The notes under the pieces are model-generated. The model was not told where the DNA came from, made no database searches, and worked only from the letters and a program-made list of their open reading frames with translations. A stretch of 49,671 nt of DNA from Candidatus Curtissbacteria bacterium RIFOXYA1_FULL_41_14 (lineage in GTDB: Bacteria > Patescibacteriota > Microgenomatia > Curtissbacterales > GWA2-41-24): contig MFCA01000028.1 in the NCBI GenBank assembly GCA_001775095.1, positions 17,746 to 67,416 on the forward strand, given 5' to 3'. Below, piece by piece: positions 6,769 through 44,767 of the stretch (within the stretch, counting starts at the first letter, position 1; every line of letters begins with the position of its first letter). The position numbers and the translations under genes are program-made.

Positions 6769-6881
6769 AGTAATTAGGTCAATATCAGCATTCGCCTTCG
6801 GCGAATCTGATATATCAGTAAACTTCATTAGATTTTTAATATTAATTACAATAATTGAAGTTTAGCTGATATTAGGTTAAT

Positions 6882-8195
6882 TTATTCCGTCCTTTGGACG
6901 GAAGGTCCTGGTCTGAGTTCAAAATAGCCCTTATTAGGCGCTTGATCGATTATTACCATTCCATTGTTAACATAAGCATCAAGTAAGCTTTTACCGGAAA
7001 ATTGGACTAAACCTTCAGGCAGAACTATCAAATCGTTTTTGAGACCAAAGCGATTCCGATAATAGGTAACTTCCGCAAATGAGGGCAGGACTGTCACAAT
7101 TTTATCTTCAGTGGAAATCTTGGGCAATATATCATTCTGGTAGGCCTGGCGAAAGGTGTAGGGATTTCTGACAAAAGTCATTGCGTCAATAATGATACTT
7201 AGAAGTATAACGGCTGTAGTCGAAGTAGCAAACAAATATTTTGGTAGTTTCTCACTAGTGTGAACAATTACCAGGCTCAAAGGGACTGCAGAGCCAATTA
7301 AATATCTCCAGAAAAAAATCGGCCGGAAGGGCAGTTGATGGCCGTCAATTTTGAGTCCGGGCAAGGCCGCCAGGATAAAGGGAACTATAGCCCAAAGCCA
7401 AATTAAAAGATAGGGCTTTTCGAAATGACGGCGAATAATATGTCCAACTATTCCCGAGAGAATAAGGAGAGCCGAGAGACTAAATAAAGCCGGACGGACA
7501 GCAGTTTGTTGCTCACCACCTAAAATTCGCAGGATTGCTTCAAAATGTGTTCTCGTGTCAATAGCCCCAATCCAATAATCGCCTCCGACCGATTTCACTT
7601 GGCTGGCCAAGAAAGGAAGCCATGGTAAATAAAGGAGTGCTATTACCCCACAGAGCCCGGTTACCTTCCAAAAAATTCCCCGATCAAAAAGCAGAAGATA
7701 TAGACCTTGGGCAGCCAGTATAAAAAACATGTAGTAGTGGGTATAAATTCCTAGAGTTGAAAGGACTACGAAGCCGAGGGCGCTGAATTTAGTGAATTTC
7801 TGACTAAGTTTAATTAGAAAGTAAATTGAACCGGTGGCCGCAAAGGCGAACATGGTGTAGTTTCTTGCTTCAAAAGCATAAGTAAAAAAGATTGGATTTA
7901 CGGCAACGACGAGTGTTGACAGTAGTCCAAATAAACGGCCTCGTACGTAAGAAGCTAATTTATATACCAGGAATATTGTCAGTAGATAGAAGATAATTGA
8001 TATCGATCGTGTTACCACTTCTGTCGGTGGTAGAAACTTATAAACAGTTTCGACTATCGAATAATATGCGGGAGGATGAAAGTCGGCGGCTGTTGTTTTG
8101 AGCATCTGGGGGTAGGGAAGTTGAGAGATTAAAGAAGTCCATGCCTCATCGCCCCAAAAGCCGCGAGTTAAATAATTTTGGGAAAGCGAAAACAT
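6882..8195 (-). CDS. GT-C (family 39-like) glycosyltransferase
   Basis: FWGDEA, DFHPPAYY, EARNY, YTHYY; start ATG 8195 or TTG 8213. Confidence 0.85.
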   Translation of the reverse strand: MFSLSQNYLTRGFWGDEAWTSLISQLPYPQMLKTTAADFHPPAYYSIVETVYKFLPPTEVVTRSISIIFYLLTIFLVYKLASYVRGRLFGLLSTLVVAVNPIFFTYAFEARNYTMFAFAATGSIYFLIKLSQKFTKFSALGFVVLSTLGIYTHYYMFFILAAQGLYLLLFDRGIFWKVTGLCGVIALLYLPWLPFLASQVKSVGGDYWIGAIDTRTHFEAILRILGGEQQTAVRPALFSLSALLILSGIVGHIIRRHFEKPYLLIWLWAIVPFILAALPGLKIDGHQLPFRPIFFWRYLIGSAVPLSLVIVHTSEKLPKYLFATSTTAVILLSIIIDAMTFVRNPYTFRQAYQNDILPKISTEDKIVTVLPSFAEVTYYRNRFGLKNDLIVLPEGLVQFSGKSLLDAYVNNGMVIIDQAPNKGYFELRPGPSVQRTE

Positions 8196-12697: not shown

Positions 12698-12873
12698 CTT
12701 TTCTAAGGGAACACCAAAGGTTTCCCCTTAGTATTCCTCTTCCTTTAAGTGGATAAAATTGGCCTGGCAAAGCCAGATCCAATTTTGATTTAGTATTAAG
12801 CTTACAATATACAGTCAGATGTCCAATTTCGAATTGGAAATTGGAAATTCACTGTAGTACAATTCAGGGTCAA

Positions 12874-13401
12874 ATGGCGGATAAGATTGTTCCTGAGGTA
12901 TTTAATAGTCCGACTTATGGTCAGTTGTCATGGCAGCAAGCACTTTTGAAAATGATCGCCTTTATGGGAGTTGATACTAAAGCTTCCTACGAGATGATTA
13001 TCGGAACTGATTCTGAGGCTGTCAATGGTATGGCCGATTTTGTTTCAGCTGTAATTGTTCACAAAAAGGGCAGAGGCGGAATCTATTTCTGGGCAAGGCA
13101 AAAAATAGATAATCTTCACTCAATGAGACAGAGGATTTGGCAGGAGGCGATTATTTCCTTGGCTGTGGCGGAGAAATTAGTTGGTGACTTAGTCCAGTTT
13201 GGTCTAGTTGATGGTCGCTCTAAGTCTGTGCTTGGGGATCCTGAGCGATTTAATCTGGAGATTCATGTTGATATCGGACCCAATGGGGAAACGCGTGCGA
13301 TGATTTCGGAAATTGTCGGAATGATTAGAGCCAATGGCTTCAAAGTTGCCACTAAACCAGCTTCCTGGGGCGCAAGCCACGTCGCAGATCGACATGTATA
13401 A
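12874..13401 (+). CDS. RNase H-like YkuK (DUF458) family protein
   Basis: IGTDSE, LEIHVDIG.NG.T, KP.SWGASHVADRH. Confidence 0.88.
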   Translation: MADKIVPEVFNSPTYGQLSWQQALLKMIAFMGVDTKASYEMIIGTDSEAVNGMADFVSAVIVHKKGRGGIYFWARQKIDNLHSMRQRIWQEAIISLAVAEKLVGDLVQFGLVDGRSKSVLGDPERFNLEIHVDIGPNGETRAMISEIVGMIRANGFKVATKPASWGASHVADRHV

Positions 13402-37982: not shown

Positions 37983-38070
37983 TGGTTTAATTTGATTATA
38001 TAACGGTCTTACTTACTTGACATGGAAACTTCTCGACTTTGCTCGAAGAATAACAAAGGTTAGGCAACAT

Positions 38071-38433
38071 TCATATTTCTTTTATCCCGTCAAGAGTAAC
38101 AAAAAGCGTATTTACTTTTATTGATGGTTTAATTTTTTCTAAATAGTCTTTTAAGGCATTGGCATTTTGGCGATGAGTTTCAAGTGAATTGTCTTCACCG
38201 TAAGCACCGCAATCTTCATGTTCGTAAATAAAGGCTTCGTCAGGGTCATGGAGGTTAATAGAAACCTTGGTGGCCTTTTTGATATTTTCGAGATCTTTTG
38301 ACACTCCGGGCCAGGAGATTCGATCAGTCTGACCTTTCAGATTGCGCATTTTAAGATCATTCTCTACAAGTTTTTGGAAACGAAAATCAATGCAATGAAC
38401 AATTAACGCTTTGGCCTTGTGCTTGACTGACAT
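38071..38433 (-). CDS. beta-carbonic-anhydrase-like protein
   Basis: CIDFR and HEDCGAY Zn motifs. Confidence 0.8.
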   Translation of the reverse strand: MSVKHKAKALIVHCIDFRFQKLVENDLKMRNLKGQTDRISWPGVSKDLENIKKATKVSINLHDPDEAFIYEHEDCGAYGEDNSLETHRQNANALKDYLEKIKPSIKVNTLFVTLDGIKEI

Positions 38434-38630
38434 AACTATTTAAAAAAAAGACCTCTGTCTTATCCAGAGAGTCCTTTGTGATGCTATACTAGCAAAAAGG
38501 AAATTGAGGGTCAATACTTATCTAATTTTAATTTTCAATTTCTAATTTTTATTCAATTTTTAAATTTAAATTTTCAAATTGGAAATTCATTAAAAATTTC
38601 AAATTTCAAATTTCAAATTAAATAAAAGAT

Positions 38631-38777
38631 ATGTTTTTGAAAATAATTTTTATCATAGCCGGGATTGCGGGGATCGTGGCGACTTTTTATGTTTCTTGGT
38701 TCTGGCGAGGATTGATTATTCCAATGGTGATTATTTTACTTGCAGATGTGGTTTGGGAGATCCTTAAGAAGAAATAG
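38631..38777 (+). CDS. 48-aa membrane protein (below ORF-track cutoff)
   Basis: MFLKIIFIIAGIAGIVATFYVSWFWRGLIIPMVIILLADVVWEILKKK; paralog at 42098. Confidence 0.7.
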   Translation: MFLKIIFIIAGIAGIVATFYVSWFWRGLIIPMVIILLADVVWEILKKK

Positions 38778-38778
38778 A

Positions 38779-39945
38779 TTATTGAAGCGATTCGGTGGGT
38801 GGATTCGAAAATGAAGATTGTGCTCCATCAGTGAAATATGGTACTAGGAATATTTGGCCTTCATGAACTATCACTAGCTGTTTACTTGCTCCTGGATAAC
38901 GCTCTTGGCCATTTGGAGAGTTGAGAATAAAAAAACCCTCGAGAAGTTTATCGGCTGTTGTTTGGCCAAAAACAAGTTGATTTTCGGGATCCATCATGCC
39001 TTTTACAAAATTGGCAACCGTTGGATCGGAACTTTCAAGCATTTTTTGATTTTCGGGAATAGCCAACAGGCAAGCTAAGTCTTGATAGAGTAAATTCACG
39101 TCCATTGTGCCATCAGGGTTCAAGTAGCGTTTCATTCCATTAGCATCGACTAAGAGTTTGGTTAAAAAGTCCCCTTGTTTGATTTCCATTTCTTTCGTGG
39201 CCGGACACGTTAAAGATTCATGAGTTTCATACAATAGACTTTTTTCGGGAATTTGGTCAGCGGGGATAGTTTCAACAATCGAGGGTGGAGGTGGGGTTTC
39301 GTGAGTCGTACCTTGTCCGGCTACTAAAGATGATCCAACTATTGGAGGGAGAAACATAAGGTCGATAAGCTTTCTTCTCCAATCTTTTTGCTGTTCTTGC
39401 GCAACGGGCTGAGATTCTAAGGATGGTCCGGATTGAGGTGAAGCAATTATAATTGCATCCGGGTTAAGCTGACTAAGTTGAACTTTATGAATCGTAATCG
39501 AATTTTTTTCGGGATTGAAATCAACAAGTTCGAAACCAAGTTGGTCGTTGAGTTGGATTACGCGAGGTTTCTCTCGTAATATTTGTGGCGAAAATTGATA
39601 GTCGCCATCTTCTCTGTGTAAAATTAATGTATCCTTTTGTCTTTGCAGCAAGACTACTGTTTTGAGTTCGTCTGGCGTCATTTCTTGAACTTTTCTGGAA
39701 TCTTCAAGATTGATAATTCTTTGGTCGTTTTTGGGATCGATTGCCAGTGCGAAGGAATTTTCCTGGGATCCCATCTTGAGCTGAAAGGTAACCGCTCTAT
39801 CTTGGCCATTTTCGCCCTCATTAAAAACACCCATTTTATTGACATTACCTTCGTAGACTTTAACATTGGGTCTTTTTATAAAAGGGTTGGGAATTTCTTC
39901 AACTGTTGGTTGAGTAGAGCGTACAAGCTCAGTTGTTATATCCAC
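38779..39945 (-). CDS. hypothetical protein, possible split LysM-like C-terminal domain
   Basis: 388 aa; EIKQGDFLTKL...IVHEGQIFLVP. Confidence 0.65.
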   Translation of the reverse strand: MDITTELVRSTQPTVEEIPNPFIKRPNVKVYEGNVNKMGVFNEGENGQDRAVTFQLKMGSQENSFALAIDPKNDQRIINLEDSRKVQEMTPDELKTVVLLQRQKDTLILHREDGDYQFSPQILREKPRVIQLNDQLGFELVDFNPEKNSITIHKVQLSQLNPDAIIIASPQSGPSLESQPVAQEQQKDWRRKLIDLMFLPPIVGSSLVAGQGTTHETPPPPSIVETIPADQIPEKSLLYETHESLTCPATKEMEIKQGDFLTKLLVDANGMKRYLNPDGTMDVNLLYQDLACLLAIPENQKMLESSDPTVANFVKGMMDPENQLVFGQTTADKLLEGFFILNSPNGQERYPGASKQLVIVHEGQIFLVPYFTDGAQSSFSNPPTESLQ

Positions 39946-39997
39946 AATTTAATATTTATCCTAAATGGGATTAATGTCAAGGATGAAGGGGTTTCGT

Positions 39998-40036
39998 TTA
40001 CAGCTGTTCCAGCTTTACCCTTCGGCTTCGCTCAGG
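39998..40036 (-). repeat. B hairpin plus recoded xer tail VKLEQL-stop
   Basis: Minus strand CCTGAGCGAAGCCGAAGG-GTAAAGCTGGAACAGCTGTAA. Confidence 0.85.
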
Positions 40037-40042
40037 ATGAAA

Positions 40043-40345
40043 TTAGAGCTGTTCCAATTTCACTTTTTCCTCGCCCTTGGGAGGCTGGATGAGAGAGAGG
40101 TAGCGTTCGGTGGTCGAAAGTCTCTTGTGGCCGGCGATTTTGGAAATTAGAACAAGCGATGCACCGGACGAAAGATGATGGGCAACCCAAGTGTGGCGAA
40201 GATCATTAACTTTGGCGCCCGAGATCCCTGCCCTTTTGTAGTAGCGGTCAATAGCAGTTCTGATATTTCTGACGAGAAGTGGTCTGCCGGTTTTGGTGAC
40301 GAAGAGGGTTTTATTGGTAGTTTTTGTGCGTTCTTCTAAATATCT
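40043..40345 (-). pseudogene. duplicate of the last 100 codons of the Xer-like recombinase
   Basis: Protein identical to the C-terminus of 43008-43883; only synonymous differences. Confidence 0.92.
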
Positions 40346-40353
40346 GTAGAAAA

Positions 40354-41460
40354 TCAAGAATTCGGAGGCCAAAGTTTCCAGACGGCCCATTGATCTTTGA
40401 GAACTACAACTGCTACCGAATCTACAAGATCAAATAGTCCCTCAGGGAAGACGTTGGTATTACTTAATTCAAAACAAATGTTTTCTTTTGTGCCTGGAAG
40501 CACCTCTTTACCAAAAAGGAAACCAAAAGGGCCACCTTGAGATTTTTTTGCCGGAATCACTCTTCCATCTTTGAGATAAACGACAATAGAGAGATCTACA
40601 TTATCTGTTATGTCCGATGAAAAACGAAGTGTTTCTGGAGAATTATTTTCAAAATCAAAAGAAATACATTGATAATATCTCTTCGGTACTCCTGTCCCTT
40701 CAGGATCCCAGGGATTTACGATTGGCCCTGTCAAAGTAATAGTGGCATAATCCCGTGCACTAAGGCTTTCACCCAAATTCTTATAATTATTAACGGCACC
40801 TTCTGGAATTAGCTGAGCTTTGCTCAAATCCGCAATCACTTCACCGTAGGGGATTGATCTTGGACTGACGCCATTTTCCATATTACCGTGGTCAGTGGAA
40901 AGTAAATTTGGTTTCTCTATCGCTACCGTTTTTGGTGCTGTACTTACTAAGATCAGAGGCAGGGCAAATCCTGGGGGAATTTTTCTGTGTTCTCCTGATT
41001 CTAAAGAGAACGGTTCATCCCAAAAATACTCTTCAAATTCGTCAAATTCTTCTCCATAGGCAGTAGGAACAAAATTTCGTGTGTTATAAGATCTTCCCTG
41101 ACCAGTAATCTTCAGGCCCAAATTAGCAAAAGTTCTTGTATCTAGTGTCTGTCCACTAATATTTCTGGCAACAGCTTCAATCACCTCAGTTTCTACTTCC
41201 GGTTTAGTTTCAAGAAAGTCTGGAATTGTTTGCCATCTTTTAATATAAATTTGCCAACCATCAGCTTCCAGAATTCCTTCTCTATTTTTTTCAACGCTTG
41301 GGGTTAATTCAGAAGTTGGCATACCTATTTCATCTTCATCATTTCCACCACAACCAGCTAACAAAGCAGTCCCGCCTAAGAATAATTTGAATGTCTTAGC
41401 AAGGAATCTTCTTCGACTAGCTTGAGTCAAAAGGATACCGGATGTTTGTTCAACTGTCAT
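40354..41460 (-). CDS. lipoprotein with twin-arginine-like signal
   Basis: SRRRFL...LLAGC. Confidence 0.75.
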   Translation of the reverse strand: MTVEQTSGILLTQASRRRFLAKTFKLFLGGTALLAGCGGNDEDEIGMPTSELTPSVEKNREGILEADGWQIYIKRWQTIPDFLETKPEVETEVIEAVARNISGQTLDTRTFANLGLKITGQGRSYNTRNFVPTAYGEEFDEFEEYFWDEPFSLESGEHRKIPPGFALPLILVSTAPKTVAIEKPNLLSTDHGNMENGVSPRSIPYGEVIADLSKAQLIPEGAVNNYKNLGESLSARDYATITLTGPIVNPWDPEGTGVPKRYYQCISFDFENNSPETLRFSSDITDNVDLSIVVYLKDGRVIPAKKSQGGPFGFLFGKEVLPGTKENICFELSNTNVFPEGLFDLVDSVAVVVLKDQWAVWKLWPPNS

Positions 41461-41511
41461 GACAAGCGGGAATTTTATCAGATACCCGATAGTTTTTCAA
41501 GTTCAAATGAG

Positions 41512-41634
41512 GTAAGTATTCAGTTTTCTCCAGCCAAGTCGTCATTGCGAGCGTAGCGAAGCAATCTTTTAGATCGCCACGGCTACTACGTAGCCTCGCG
41601 ATGACATATCCATTGGAGAAAGGTGAATACTTAC
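41512..41634. repeat. RPE-like element (41541-41606) nested in an outer inverted repeat
   Basis: GTAAGTATTCA..TTTCTCCA / TGGAGAAA..TGAATACTTAC flanks. Confidence 0.82.
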
Positions 41635-41644
41635 GATTTAGTTA

Positions 41645-42064
41645 TCAATAAAAATCTATCTTGTCACCTTTTGATTTTTTACTGATCTGGCGCCTCCCAG
41701 CATTTGTATAAAACCCCTCAAGTATTTCTTCTTTTAATCTTTCAAGGTCGTGAATATGACTTAGGATTTGAATATAAGCTGCCCTGGTCTTGTCAGTTCT
41801 GCCAAGCGGTGTCAAATTCGTGCGGAGAATTTTAGTTCTGTTTTCAAGAGCTTGAGTTAAAGTTTGGATTCGACCCTCAGGCGCAAGTATTAAGAATGTC
41901 TTGTTTTTAACTAAAACCTCCCAGTGACCATTGTCAACTAAAAATTCCAGTTCACGAGTTTCATCGGGAGATAGTCGAACTTCTTGTTTGGGTAGAACGC
42001 TTGCTGGTTTTGTAATTAAATCAATAATGTATCTTCTGGCGGTTTTTATGGATGATTTTTTCAT
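41645..42064 (-). CDS. hypothetical protein
   Basis: ORF; ATG 42064 preferred since ATG 42079 overlaps a TATAAT box. Confidence 0.6.
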   Translation of the reverse strand: MKKSSIKTARRYIIDLITKPASVLPKQEVRLSPDETRELEFLVDNGHWEVLVKNKTFLILAPEGRIQTLTQALENRTKILRTNLTPLGRTDKTRAAYIQILSHIHDLERLKEEILEGFYTNAGRRQISKKSKGDKIDFY

Positions 42065-42097
42065 TTGTGATGGGCACATTATAAAACTCTAGAGTAA

Positions 42098-42240
42098 TTG
42101 GTGCTACTCACGAGAATAATCTTTATCATTGTCGGTATTATAGCGACTTTTTACGTTTCCTGGTTTTGGAGAGGGTTAATTATTCCAATGGTTATTATTT
42201 TTTTTGCAGATGTTATTTGGGGATGCTTAAGAATAACTAG
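42098..42240 (+). pseudogene. frameshifted paralog of the 48-aa membrane protein
   Basis: ATFYVSWFWRGLIIPMVII shared; 1-nt loss after W leaves TAG 42238 out of frame. Confidence 0.7.
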
Positions 42241-42260
42241 CCTGATTTTGGGTTATCGAT

Positions 42261-42932
42261 TCAGCTTGGTGTTCTGGCCCTATGTCTTTGATCTTTGGCT
42301 GCTCTTGCTCTCGCTTTCTTTTGTTGAGTTGCTTGTCTTTCTTTCTTATCGAGTCTGTTTTGGATGACTCTGGCGATGTCTCGGCGATCCTGATGATTGT
42401 CTCGTTCTATCGGTAAACTATCGATTAATTCTTTGAGTCTCGAACTTTGAAGAACACCTTCTTCCGTGGCAACATCGAAAGCATTGACAGCACTTGGCCA
42501 GTCTTTCTCCTCAAAAGCCTTTTTACCGAAACCTTCAATTAAATCATTAATATAAGATTCGGTCTTTGTGGTTAACTCTTGATCAGTTTCAAATGGACTT
42601 CTGAGCTTAATATCAGACCATTTCCGAGAAATTGCATCAGGTATTTGATCAATTGTGAACACAGACCGAAATTCGATCATGGTATCGTCAGGTAGTGTTA
42701 TTGGTCTCGGAGCACCATCTCTAAATCGTGAACAGGATTCCAAGTCTTTTTTGTGTTGGTTATATAAGTCTATACCTGCTTCTTTATCCTTTCCCAAAGC
42801 TTCCAGAAGTTGTTGACGTTCTTGTCTTTCTTTTTCCAGTCCTTCTTGCTCAAACTGGGCCAGTTTGTCCGGGGTTAAACCGACAAAGTCAAGGACACGG
42901 ACATTTGGGAGAATTGGTGATCTCTCTGCCAT
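42261..42932 (-). CDS. hypothetical protein
   Basis: 223 aa, MAER start, charged helical. Confidence 0.7.
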   Translation of the reverse strand: MAERSPILPNVRVLDFVGLTPDKLAQFEQEGLEKERQERQQLLEALGKDKEAGIDLYNQHKKDLESCSRFRDGAPRPITLPDDTMIEFRSVFTIDQIPDAISRKWSDIKLRSPFETDQELTTKTESYINDLIEGFGKKAFEEKDWPSAVNAFDVATEEGVLQSSRLKELIDSLPIERDNHQDRRDIARVIQNRLDKKERQATQQKKARARAAKDQRHRARTPS

Positions 42933-42938
42933 TCTAAA

Positions 42939-42986
42939 TTAGAGTTGTTCTAATTTCACTTTTTCTTCCCTTCGACTTCGCTCAGG
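42939..42986 (-). repeat. B hairpin plus recoded xer tail EEKVKLEQL-stop
   Basis: Minus strand CCTGAGCGAAGTCGAAGG-GAAGAAAAAGTGAAATTAGAACAACTCTAA. Confidence 0.88.
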
Positions 42987-43007
42987 GTAAACTGCTCGGA
43001 AAAAGTT

Positions 43008-43883
43008 TTAAAGTTGCTCGAGCTTAACTTTTTCCTCGCCTTTTGGGGGTTGGATGAGAGAGAGGTAGCGTTCGGTGGTCGAAAGTCTCTTGTGGCCGGC
43101 GATTTTGGAAATTAGAACAAGCGATGCACCGGACGAAAGATGATGGGCAACCCAAGTGTGGCGAAGATCATTAACTTTGGCGCCCGAAATCCCTGCCCTT
43201 TTATAGTAGCGGTCAATAGCAGTTCTGATATTTCTGACTAAAAGTGGTCTTCCGGTTTTGGTAACAAAGAGAGTTTTATTGGTAGTTTTTGTCCGTTCCT
43301 CCAGATACCTTTTGAGTACAGCTTCGGCTGCTTTATTTAAAGGGACTGTCCGCTCAGGCCTATTTTCCATAGGTCTAATGTAAAGATGACCCTCCTTACC
43401 GTCTTCTCCTAAAAAGACATCATCAGTTCTTAAATTGGCCAATTCCCCAATTCTGATACCTGTCTGAAGGAGTACCTCGATAATAGCAGCAATTCTAGCA
43501 TCATCTCTGGCGGCATCACGCAGTGCCCTGTATTCAGTGGGGGAAAGAATTCTTGGAGGTTTTGCCTCAAATTTTGGATGGTCAACTAAACTTGCCGGGT
43601 CGTCGGTTAGATACTCCTGGACTTTTAAATATCTAAAAAATGTTTTGGTGGAATTTAATTTTCGCGAAATTGATTTTAGGGTGTAGCCGCTATTTTGCAT
43701 TTTGGCCAAAAAGCCTTTAATGTCATCTGAAGTGACCTCATGGACGTGAGCTTTTGATATCTCTTGTAAGAATGCTATCAGCTGCTCGATATCTTTACCG
43801 TATGCTAAGATGGTAGCGGAGGCTCGCTTTCGGCCTTTTAGGTGTTCAATAAACTCTTTATGAGCTTCGTCCAATTTTTTCAT
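43008..43883 (-). CDS. XerC/XerD-like tyrosine recombinase
   Basis: N-terminal SAM-like domain, TGIRIGEL, NDLRHT, AGH..LSTTERY. Confidence 0.92.
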   Translation of the reverse strand: MKKLDEAHKEFIEHLKGRKRASATILAYGKDIEQLIAFLQEISKAHVHEVTSDDIKGFLAKMQNSGYTLKSISRKLNSTKTFFRYLKVQEYLTDDPASLVDHPKFEAKPPRILSPTEYRALRDAARDDARIAAIIEVLLQTGIRIGELANLRTDDVFLGEDGKEGHLYIRPMENRPERTVPLNKAAEAVLKRYLEERTKTTNKTLFVTKTGRPLLVRNIRTAIDRYYKRAGISGAKVNDLRHTWVAHHLSSGASLVLISKIAGHKRLSTTERYLSLIQPPKGEEKVKLEQL

Positions 43884-44102
43884 ATCCTAGGCATAATTTG
43901 TGCCGAGTCAAACTCGGCTATCGGGTCAGACTTGGTGCAGAATAGCAGGCTGACCCCGATTAATCTTGCTGTTCGCCTTTAGGTTCTATTCGAACATGGT
44001 TCACAGTGCGATTTTACGGGGCAGGCAACTTAAAAAGTTAAGGCAAGTATAATCCTATGCTATGGGTCTTGTCAAGCCCGTCAGGATAATACTGCAGTTG
44101 AT

Positions 44103-44453
44103 ATGAAACGTACTTTTTTACTATTTTTTGCGGTACTTGTAAGTATCGTTTTGGCTATAAACAGCACAAAGCGGATTCTAGGTTTGAGAACAAATTCGCT
44201 TAGCGTTGGTGAGGCCGAAAAACAGTTGGAAAAGTTAAAGCAGGAAAATGAGGCTTTAAAGGGGGAGCTGGAATACAAAAAAACTGACGAATTTGTCGAA
44301 GAGGAAATTAGGAATAAACTTGGTTTAGCCAGAGAGGGGGAGACAGTAGTTATTCTCCCAAAAGAGAATGATGAAAACTCCAAACTCCAAACTCCAGACT
44401 CCAGACTCGGATCAAATTGGGAAAAGTGGCAGGAATTGTTTTTCGGAAGTTGA
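44103..44453 (+). CDS. septum formation initiator (FtsB/DivIC) family
   Basis: TM, coiled coil, EEEIRNKLGLAREGE. Confidence 0.85.
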   Translation: MKRTFLLFFAVLVSIVLAINSTKRILGLRTNSLSVGEAEKQLEKLKQENEALKGELEYKKTDEFVEEEIRNKLGLAREGETVVILPKENDENSKLQTPDSRLGSNWEKWQELFFGS

Positions 44454-44498
44454 CAGGAAGCTATTTTGAAGCTAAAATAGCTTCACTTATTCAAACAT

Positions 44499-44569
44499 CG
44501 CGGGGTGGAGAAACGGTATCTCGGGAGGCTCATAATCTCCAGAAGTGGGTTCGACTCCCGCCCCCGCTA
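44499..44569 (+). tRNA. tRNA-Met(CAU), probably initiator
   Basis: CGCGGGG/CCCCGCT with unpaired C1; GGAGG-CTCATAA-TCTCC; T arm GTGGG-TTCGACT-CCCGC. Confidence 0.88.
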
Positions 44570-44576
44570 CAGCGTA

Positions 44577-44607
44577 AGAACGGCTCGCACTAGAGCCGTT
44601 TCTTTTT
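44577..44607 (+). terminator. intrinsic terminator
   Basis: AACGGCTC/GAGCCGTT stem plus T-rich tail. Confidence 0.75.
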
Positions 44608-44692: not shown

Positions 44693-44767
44693 GGCAGGGT
44701 AGCTCAATGGCAGAGCGAGAGAATCATAACCTCTAGGTTGTGGGTTCGATCCCCACCCCTGCCACCA
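44693..44767 (+). tRNA. tRNA-Met(CAU), probably elongator
   Basis: GGCAGGG/CCCTGCC, AATCATAA loop region, encoded CCA. Confidence 0.88.

Follow-up and report, generated by a model that had tools for sequence, protein, structure and literature searches.

The stretch of DNA analysed here, called the window below, is 49,671 nucleotides (nt) long and comes from Candidatus Curtissbacteria bacterium RIFOXYA1_FULL_41_14 (contig C28, positions 17746-67416; MFCA01000028.1), whose 1.15-Mb genome is assembled in 30 contigs and is 99.66% complete. Genome size and gene content suggest a small-genome (CPR-type) bacterium of groundwater metagenomes. On the minus strand of the window, between the ATP synthase operon and the divergent gene divIC, the 3' end of the tyrosine recombinase gene xer occurs twice. 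Each time it is followed by a hairpin, a short recoded tail of the gene, an open reading frame (ORF) and a convergent membrane gene; this twice-repeated order and the coordinates of its elements had been noted in the original prediction and hold as described there. On balance, the locus is probably a recombination scar: recombination between strains would have brought together two diverged alleles of the locus, with one illegitimate junction that left a displaced gene end behind. On this view, 2,965 bp were added, and the last 100 xer codons now stand on either side of them, once in the working gene and once as a relic out of place. The repeated elements are listed here.

xer, 43008..43883, minus strand: full-length tyrosine recombinase of 291 amino acids (aa), a single-copy core gene
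Repeat copy 1, 43008..43310, minus strand: last 100 codons and stop codon of the intact xer
Identical core, 43051..43187 (equivalent to 40086-40222), minus strand: 137 nt without a difference between the copies
Long hairpin element, 42969..43007, minus strand: directly 3' of the xer stop codon; its loop motif is a dispersed repeat
Tail 1, 42939..42968, minus strand: last nine xer codons and stop codon again (EEKVKLEQL*)
Repeat copy 2, 40043..40345, minus strand: truncated xer 3' end, with the last 100 codons and stop codon and without the first ~190 codons
Short hairpin element, 40019..40042, minus strand: same loop motif as the long hairpin
Tail 2, 39998..40018, minus strand: last six xer codons and stop codon for a third time (VKLEQL*)

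The two copies form a direct repeat of 300 nt (40043-40342 and 43008-43307) that is 92% identical and recurs at a spacing of 2,965 bp. Of 303 nt, 24 differ, all of them silently, and the encoded 100-residue peptides are identical. The differences sit at both ends of the repeat and flank the 137-nt identical middle, which would fit conversion around a crossover. Both copies also share lineage-specific residues that are absent from the 92%-identical Xer of a relative, genome G003. Since all 24 differences are silent and these residues are common to both, each copy evolved within a working xer of a close relative. Copy 2 thus appears to have matured in the functional xer of a very close lineage and to have been joined to the locus later, rather than to be a decaying local duplicate. 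Its homology to xer ends within a few bases of the stop codon of the adjoining ORF c368 (~40345-40357). The insert is thereby bounded by direct repeats of the 3' end of its target gene, with the intact xer on one side and the relic on the other. A chance repeat is ruled out, as no other place in the 1.15-Mb genome holds the xer 3' sequence.

Silent recoding extends to the tails. In the last six codons of tail 1, 6 of 18 nt are unlike the real xer end, and tail 2 differs from the end of copy 2 at four positions; all of these differences are silent. A 33-nt repeat (91%) matches the end of copy 2 to the tail behind copy 1, and the outer arm of the long hairpin is complementary to the xer codons immediately upstream of the last six. 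When the two modules are aligned, similarity is confined to the xer 3' part, hairpin, tail and membrane gene, the last as a 94-nt repeat (38664-38757 and 42128-42221) that is 82% identical. The intervening ORFs cannot be aligned as DNA and reach an hhalign probability of 0.2% as proteins. This agrees with the earlier statement that the two cargo ORFs, c223 and c388, are unrelated, and it rules out c388 as a divergent member of the c223 family. A search of Rfam over 38000-44600 returned tRNA only. The other features of the two modules are as follows.

c223, 42261..42932, minus strand: 223-aa helical protein of a fast-evolving family found downstream of xer
Membrane-gene paralogue, 42098..42367, plus strand: 89-aa ORF without a stop codon at the homologous position; overlaps the end of c223
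c144, 41645..42079, minus strand: conserved 144-aa protein of unassigned family, outside its usual context
Large palindromic repeat, 41512..41634, no strand assigned: between c144 and c368, of another family than the xer hairpin; 40-nt arms, 75% complementary
c368, 40354..41460, minus strand: 368-aa ORF with a twin-arginine-like signal and lipobox at its N terminus (by sequence); its stop codon abuts the xer fragment
c388, 38779..39945, minus strand: 388-aa ORF of unassigned family; directly behind the full xer in the closest relative
mem48, 38631..38777, plus strand: conserved convergent 48-aa membrane gene; adjoins CA2 and atpB, as in relatives

The locus was compared with 76 related loci, comprising 20 xer loci from genomes of the same family and 56 from metagenomes (77 loci with the source genome's own). 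The synteny of the family runs from divIC and xer through a variable gap, holding a gene of the c223 family, to the convergent small membrane gene, often a Pro_CA_2 (CA2) gene, and atpB. Among the 76 loci, xer and the membrane gene are 5 to 2,634 nt apart, and the gap behind the latter is 83 to 4,585 nt long. The neighbourhood is therefore not invariant in relatives, the point on which the original prediction had proposed to be checked. Module 1 matches this synteny, since the c223 family lies behind xer in 39 of the 76 loci, a count in which duplicates were kept and which includes several loci that end before the slot. A second long xer fragment was present in none of the 76.

The closest relative, contig L068 (2,663 nt; Xer 98% identical), carries the full xer, hairpin, tail, c388 (78%), mem48 (100%) and the start of CA2, and represents an empty site without the 2,965-bp insert. 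Relative to L068, the source genome has in addition a second xer end, the long hairpin, tail 1, c223, the membrane-gene copy, c144, the palindrome and c368. G003 has a block of xer end, hairpin and tail like that of copy 1, and the end, hairpin and tail of copy 2 differ from those common to copy 1, G003 and L068.

The assembly was checked against public contigs (Logan) from four runs of four studies; this check covers contigs only. In all, 20 public runs (11 studies) contain 96-98% of the sampled sequence words, and 18 of these are marked as potential sources of the DNA. In all four runs, mismatch-free contigs cover 38595-40154, 40244-41568 and 41585-42996, the last extending to 43080 in two runs. 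Those over 40244-41568 run from c368 into that stretch of the xer fragment which has bases peculiar to copy 2. Because mismatch-free contigs carry these copy-2-specific bases in 4/4 runs, the join between c368 and the xer fragment is real. Every public contig ends at the shared 137-nt core, across which the order may be the tandem as assembled or an L068-like chromosome together with a 2,965-bp circle. c368 lies on five contigs, the longest of 432,616 nt and from another assembly, which favours the integrated, chromosomal form. No contig joint for an excision of 68/69 nt or 2,965 nt was among those listed, and contigs drop rare variants. Contig depth, which is one figure per contig and was not used as evidence, was for the insert about 0.7 of that of the flanks in two of the four runs (X19 and X18), at most a weak hint of a reversible element, and about equal in X20; in X20 the core contig had a depth of 17 against 8-11 for the flanks, about double, which speaks against an assembly artefact. 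Contig joints with short sides (20-30 nt) were likewise given no weight.

The four insert ORFs matched no integrase, transposase, nuclease or replication family in Pfam, NCBIfam or PHROG, with nothing above cut-off, and Pfam gave no match to LAGLIDADG, GIY-YIG or HNH in the insert. c223, c144, c368 and c388 are each single-copy in the genome. The insert is read as a patchwork of chromosomal genes because c144 sits elsewhere in relatives and is single-copy here, and because c368 is an orphan. A scar is favoured since there is no mobility gene, the cargo looks chromosomal, and either end can look native.

According to this reading, allele 1 would have consisted of the whole xer, hairpin, tail, c223 and membrane-gene copy, plus c144 and c368, genes that are sited elsewhere in relatives. 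Allele 2 would begin abruptly at about xer codon 190, after the c368 stop codon, and continue with its own hairpin, tail, c388, mem48, CA2 and atpB. The anatomy, the silent divergence, the missing insert in L068 and the generality of the tails are observed; how recombination proceeded, which way the DNA moved and what part the hairpins played we infer as follows. DNA of a close relative may have been anchored by homology at one end and joined illegitimately at the other, as in homology-facilitated illegitimate recombination; alternatively, a circularised fragment could have entered by a single crossover. Later gene conversion would have made the 137-nt core identical. The short tails would be small-scale scars of the same kind, with the junction at a hairpin behind the stop codon that resembles repetitive extragenic palindromic (REP) sequences, and hairpins behind stop codons would be preferred breakpoints.

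Tails of this kind are widespread behind xer. In many relatives, the xer stop codon and a hairpin are followed by a stop-ended stretch that re-encodes the last six to nine residues. Among the 59 distinct xer loci with enough downstream sequence, 22 yielded 25 pairs of tail and real end. Across the pairs, 150 nt out of 450 are unlike and so are 112 codons out of 150, yet no more than 11 amino acids differ; the filter used (at most two amino-acid mismatches) biases this count, although only 27 of 119,327 stop-ended 21-mers in the genome pass it. When equally many changes were placed at random in a neutral simulation, 90.9 amino acids differed on average, and none of 5,000 replicates came down to 11. 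The tails also follow residues typical of single lineages (IKLEAL, LRLEQL and LKLEEL, for instance). On a tree of 52 xer sequences, 19 of them with tails, at least 12 changes are needed, of which at least 8 are forced by well-supported branches. The sequence closer to the real end of the nearest tail-less relative was the tail at 6 of 20 loci and the real end at 10, with 4 ties, a mixed result that is expected if incoming DNA anchors on either side.

Several readings of the tails were set aside. Stop-codon read-through or a frameshift into the tail does not fit, as the tail is in frame here (69 nt) and not in G003 and L068 (68 nt), and several intervening stretches at other genes contain stop codons. 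A mini-ORF with its own start is contradicted by first codons that vary (GTG, GTT, GTA, ATG, TTG, ATT, CTT, CTA and others). A diversity-generating retroelement is likewise rejected, since by eye the differences are silent rather than diversifying and are not tied to adenines. Two further observations, also by eye, concern the codons themselves: at many loci those for K-L-E-E/Q-L at the xer end often make up a short palindrome, which takes either of two registers, and real end and tail usually differ in the leucine codon family, TTR versus CTN.

Recoded gene ends are not peculiar to xer. We scanned ORFs of at least 100 aa for a re-encoded copy of the last eight residues (at least 6/8 identical) within 250 nt downstream, with shuffled pairings as the control. 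In the source genome, 9 of 1,264 ORFs had such a copy, against 0 in 3 x 1,264 shuffled pairings. The nine matches are the two xer copies and seven other genes.

GlmS-like, GAPDH, MacB/FtsX permease, RpoC, UvrD-type helicase-nuclease and glycosyltransferase genes, at C3:~1240, C8:~10612 and C25:~88207, ~170068, ~221589 and ~240126
RNaseH-like gene (PF04308, 186 aa), window 12841-13401, plus strand: ends ...SHVADRHV*, with ...RMVADRHV* 26 nt later (about 26-53 nt downstream)

At the first six genes, 5-20 terminal codons are re-encoded behind hairpin repeats with mostly silent differences, and in the RpoC copy 16/16 residues are identical. In the loci of relatives, 18 of 770 ORFs had re-encoded ends compared with 2 of 2,310 controls, atpB among them in three loci. 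In genome G005 (L067, G005:C4 ~6830-7000, minus strand), the gene of an ATP-dependent DNA ligase with an intein has a GC-rich hairpin behind it, after which its last 16 codons are encoded again (11/16 residues identical, by eye); a c223-family gene and a c368-like lipoprotein gene come next. The elements between real ends and copies belong to several hairpin repeat families and are 24-160 nt long and non-coding. Over kilobase distances, no gene but xer is followed by a perfect copy of its 40 C-terminal residues. Because the duplication occurs at genes unrelated to recombination, nothing ties the pattern to the recombinase. A keyword search of the literature, which is not proof of absence, found recoded gene-end duplicates described for fungal mitochondria only and none around bacterial hairpins or REPs.

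The loop motif of the xer hairpin has 52 matches genome-wide in unrelated contexts, and the long hairpin element lies behind xer in 13 distinct loci. Compared with shuffled controls, the hairpin folds are not unusually stable (z scores of -0.57, -1.40 and -2.28). Y1_Tnp (PF01797) has two matches above cut-off in the source genome, G000:C13:23951-24196 and G000:C29:210878-211543 (L136 379-1044). The latter is a 221-aa ORF with an H-Y-H motif (by sequence) and resembles REP-associated tyrosine transposases (RAYTs); at the C13 stretch no ORF of 120 aa or more is listed. No TnpB-type gene was found in the genome. The combination that marks REP/REPIN-RAYT systems, many short palindromic copies together with a Y1 (HUH) transposase-like gene, is thus present. 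REP/REPIN elements are short dispersed palindromes with RAYT transposases (PMC3116915, PMC3337134). The likeness here lies in short dispersed palindromes directly behind stop codons and in Y1 (HUH) transposase-like genes in the same genome. REP insertion is not known to duplicate 20-60 nt of a gene end.

The recombinase itself has both catalytic and N-terminal SAM-like domains, with Pfam matches to Phage_integrase (PF00589; 1.9e-30) and Phage_int_SAM_1 (PF02899; 4.6e-14). Its best NCBIfam matches are XerC (167.5 bits; cut-off, 335) and XerD (162.5 bits; cut-off, 330), so both equivalog cut-offs are missed. Integron integrase models score far below their cut-offs (TIGR02249, 59.2 bits versus 265; NF011946, 25.4 versus 435). 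The gene is present in 38 of 41 genomes searched, the source genome included, and in 21 of 24 other family genomes. It gives one match per genome at 77-92% identity, the source genome excepted. This marks it as a conserved core gene, for which a Xer-like role is plausible. Contig C2 carries another tyrosine recombinase, which is 25% identical to Xer. GC skew stays positive across the whole window and does not turn at the xer locus, which makes a dif-like terminus site unlikely there. No evidence was found for a reading as dif or as an integrative mobile element exploiting Xer (IMEX), given the skew without a turn and a lineage that has no dif consensus.

Several results weigh against a passive scar. 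The regular fall of junctions at hairpins lacks an explanation under that model. Tails change between loci like coding sequence, with 5.71 nt and 1.46 aa differences compared with 5.93 nt and 1.16 aa for the real ends, and most of the 78 pairwise comparisons among 13 loci show the long-hairpin block to diverge about as slowly as the coding part of xer; together, these hint at lasting selection. Tail and real end differ in 75% of codons, which by a rough estimate approaches fully randomised synonymous codons. No donor with the membrane gene, c144 and c368 in order was found in the relatives searched, and we infer the illegitimate junction solely from the abrupt end of homology at ~40345-40357. 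Finally, the identical core needs an extra conversion step and would equally fit the crossover site of a reversible element. That alternative we consider unlikely but not negligible. Under it, the 2,965-bp insert and, in miniature, the hairpin units would be elements able to integrate and leave again, each attaching at an essential gene's 3' end and bringing a replacement for that end, recoded at silent positions. Integration would keep the gene intact and precise loss would restore it, with Xer or, for the hairpins, RAYT-like Y1 transposases as the candidate enzyme. Silently diverged direct repeats around an identical core, a close relative without the insert, tails scattered patchily over the xer tree, and two Y1_Tnp genes alongside 52 dispersed hairpins all agree with it, and the constraint on hairpins and tails together with the 75% codon difference keeps this selfish-insertion reading alive. 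It also has an analogue in mitochondria, where inserted and native C termini show the same low nt and high aa identity (PMC3630166). Set against it are an insert without integrase, endonuclease or transposase, cargo that resembles ordinary chromosomal genes, the lack of an excision joint among the listed contigs (in which rare variants are dropped), the lack of a long xer fragment at any other locus, and the GC skew. A role for Xer is further opposed by the same pattern at RpoC, GlmS, GAPDH and other genes.

The remaining explanations fare worse than the scar. The original prediction proposed a variable cassette slot on the recombinase 3' end, integron-like in outcome though lacking attC sites; this, taken with Xer as the enzyme that inserts and swaps the cargo genes, we regard as scarcely credible. 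What stood is that the gap is variable, that c223 and c388 fill it in close relatives, and that the xer end is a recurrent junction (22/59 loci; at least 12 changes). What did not is the integron-like, recombinase-anchored part: mostly one gene family (c223), not assorted cassettes, occupies the slot; the 291-aa protein scores 59.2 bits where IntI requires 265; the hairpin is dispersed through the genome and so is not a cassette-bound, attC-like site; unrelated genes show the same duplication; and the source genome's own long duplication is the only one among 77 loci. The prediction had also named two haplotypes stitched in tandem as a finding that would count against it. In a biological sense this holds in part, since the two modules do look like diverged alleles in tandem; the DNA in which c368 runs into the truncated xer is genuine, however. 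An assembly artefact, whether by stitching of strain haplotypes or a misresolved collapsed repeat, is accordingly very improbable. The genome is metagenome-assembled, a related strain (L068) occurs in metagenome collections, and the contigs of all four runs stop at the core; stitching, however, cannot fuse a truncated gene to another ORF, and that junction is contiguous and mismatch-free in 4/4 runs, with c368 also on the 432,616-nt contig of another assembly. We give equally little credence to a tandem duplication of the xer-cargo-membrane module in the source genome followed by divergence and gene replacement. The gene order is indeed present twice, but an unselected relic should gain amino-acid changes and 0 of 24 differences are of that kind, the end, hairpin and tail of copy 2 are unlike those of copy 1, G003 and L068, and the closest relative has no duplication.

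Among known systems, homology-facilitated illegitimate recombination, a process of naturally transformable bacteria shown in Acinetobacter and Streptococcus, is alike in that a homologous anchor and an illegitimate join add foreign DNA and can duplicate part of the anchor; it differs in that it is not shown in this lineage and that regular hairpin junctions are not part of it. Small-genome organisms such as this one are thought to depend on DNA uptake. Integrons share a tyrosine recombinase gene beside a variable stretch with hairpin-forming sites nearby, whereas here the recombinase is Xer-like, not of the IntI type, and points towards the slot, and no array of unrelated, attC-bounded cassettes beside attI was found in the 76 loci. 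Prophage e14 and phage 21 insert in Escherichia coli icd, carry a substitute icd 3' end, and have their own integrase and a defined att core. As here, the insertion lies in the 3' part of a housekeeping gene that is kept by a replacement end with a relic left behind, but the present insert has no integrase or defined att core. IMEXs, such as CTX phage, and the pdif modules of Acinetobacter plasmids use 28-bp XerC/XerD sites at the terminus or on plasmids. They too lack their own integrase and are bounded by duplicated recombinase-related sequence, whereas the repeat here is 300 nt of xer coding sequence and no dif-like site was identified. In fungal mitochondria, mobile endonuclease ORFs have made C-terminal duplications in Allomyces atp6 and in Glomus atp6, atp9, cox2 and nad3 (PMC3630166). 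The arrangement there matches ours, with a gene core, an inserted C terminus in use, inserted DNA, and the native C terminus left downstream. The C termini there are 64-81% identical in nt and 91-100% in aa (PMC3630166), compared with 92% and 100% for our long repeat and ~67% and ~93% for the tails. The mitochondrial insert encodes the homing endonuclease that drives it; the 2,965-bp insert encodes none, the small inserts are non-coding, and the setting is a bacterial chromosome.

The locus itself would be an ordinary though instructive scar. The integron analogy falls away, and the apparent cassettes become two diverged alleles of a conserved locus. The wider pattern, with recoded gene ends behind hairpins at xer in about one third of related lineages and at RpoC, GlmS, GAPDH, atpB, a DNA ligase and further genes, is either a record of frequent recombination between diverged strains or a novel means by which small selfish elements lodge safely in essential genes. 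It is a doubtful but consequential idea that small-genome bacteria harbour a class of insertions, from 24-160-nt hairpins to a 3-kb unit, that land in the last codons of essential genes and bring a silently recoded copy. If so, the gene would be intact with or without the insert, recoding would guard against loss by recombination between the repeats, imprecise loss would be lethal, and both copies would be under coding selection as lineages flip between states. Such insertions, possibly moved by RAYT-like Y1 transposases, would parallel in bacteria, and without coding for anything, the mitochondrial duplications that endonucleases drive. For annotation and assembly, gene-end relics can pass as small ORFs, and the repeats break contigs.

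The genes beside the xer copies differ in their distribution. The ATG of c223 lies 6 nt past the stop codon of tail 1, as had been noted earlier. By single-linkage clustering, its family has 40 members including c223, to which the others are 14-43% identical. c223 had no match in Pfam, NCBIfam or PHROG, and its AlphaFold2 model (pLDDT 90) is helical, with no PDB fold match at an E value of 0.001 or below. The original prediction assigned a 48-aa membrane gene to each module; this is so in module 2, but module 1 reads as the 89-aa ORF. The latter is less similar than mem48 to the copies in relatives and is possibly decaying. c388 has, besides the 78% copy in L068, only one other homologue in the family, in genome G042 and in a different context.

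Homologues of c144 (57-77% identical) occur in 3 of 31 other family genomes. Three of four copies have a ribonucleotide reductase gene on one side and, on the other, a gene that by its sequence is pseudouridine synthase-like; the conserved row in G005:C8, G043:C1 and G014:C4 is NrdR, ribonucleotide reductase, c144-like and pseudouridine synthase-like. In the source genome, ribonucleotide reductase is on C25 and c144 at the xer locus, and the pseudouridine synthase-like query from the relatives had no match. The structure model of c144 is poor (pLDDT 60). Among 5.8 billion proteins, c368 matches itself only; one distant homologue (26% identical) adjoins the c223-family gene of G005. Neither c368 nor c144 has close relatives in species-representative genomes.

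Over the palindrome at 41512-41634, summed contig depth reaches ~1,600-1,800 (maximum, 1,774) in two runs compared with ~20 beside it, indicating a repeat common to many organisms or loci in those samples. In two runs, summed contig depth also exceeds 1,200 over an AT-rich repetitive stretch between CA2 and mem48 (38436-38669), where many loose contig ends start. In the metagenome relative L116 (8001-8812), xer is in two overlapping pieces (residues 1-109 and 126-291), which suggests a frameshift or small deletion. Directly upstream of the divIC-xer pair in the window are two tRNA-Met (CAT) genes, 44499-44570 and 44693-44767, with related 3' halves.

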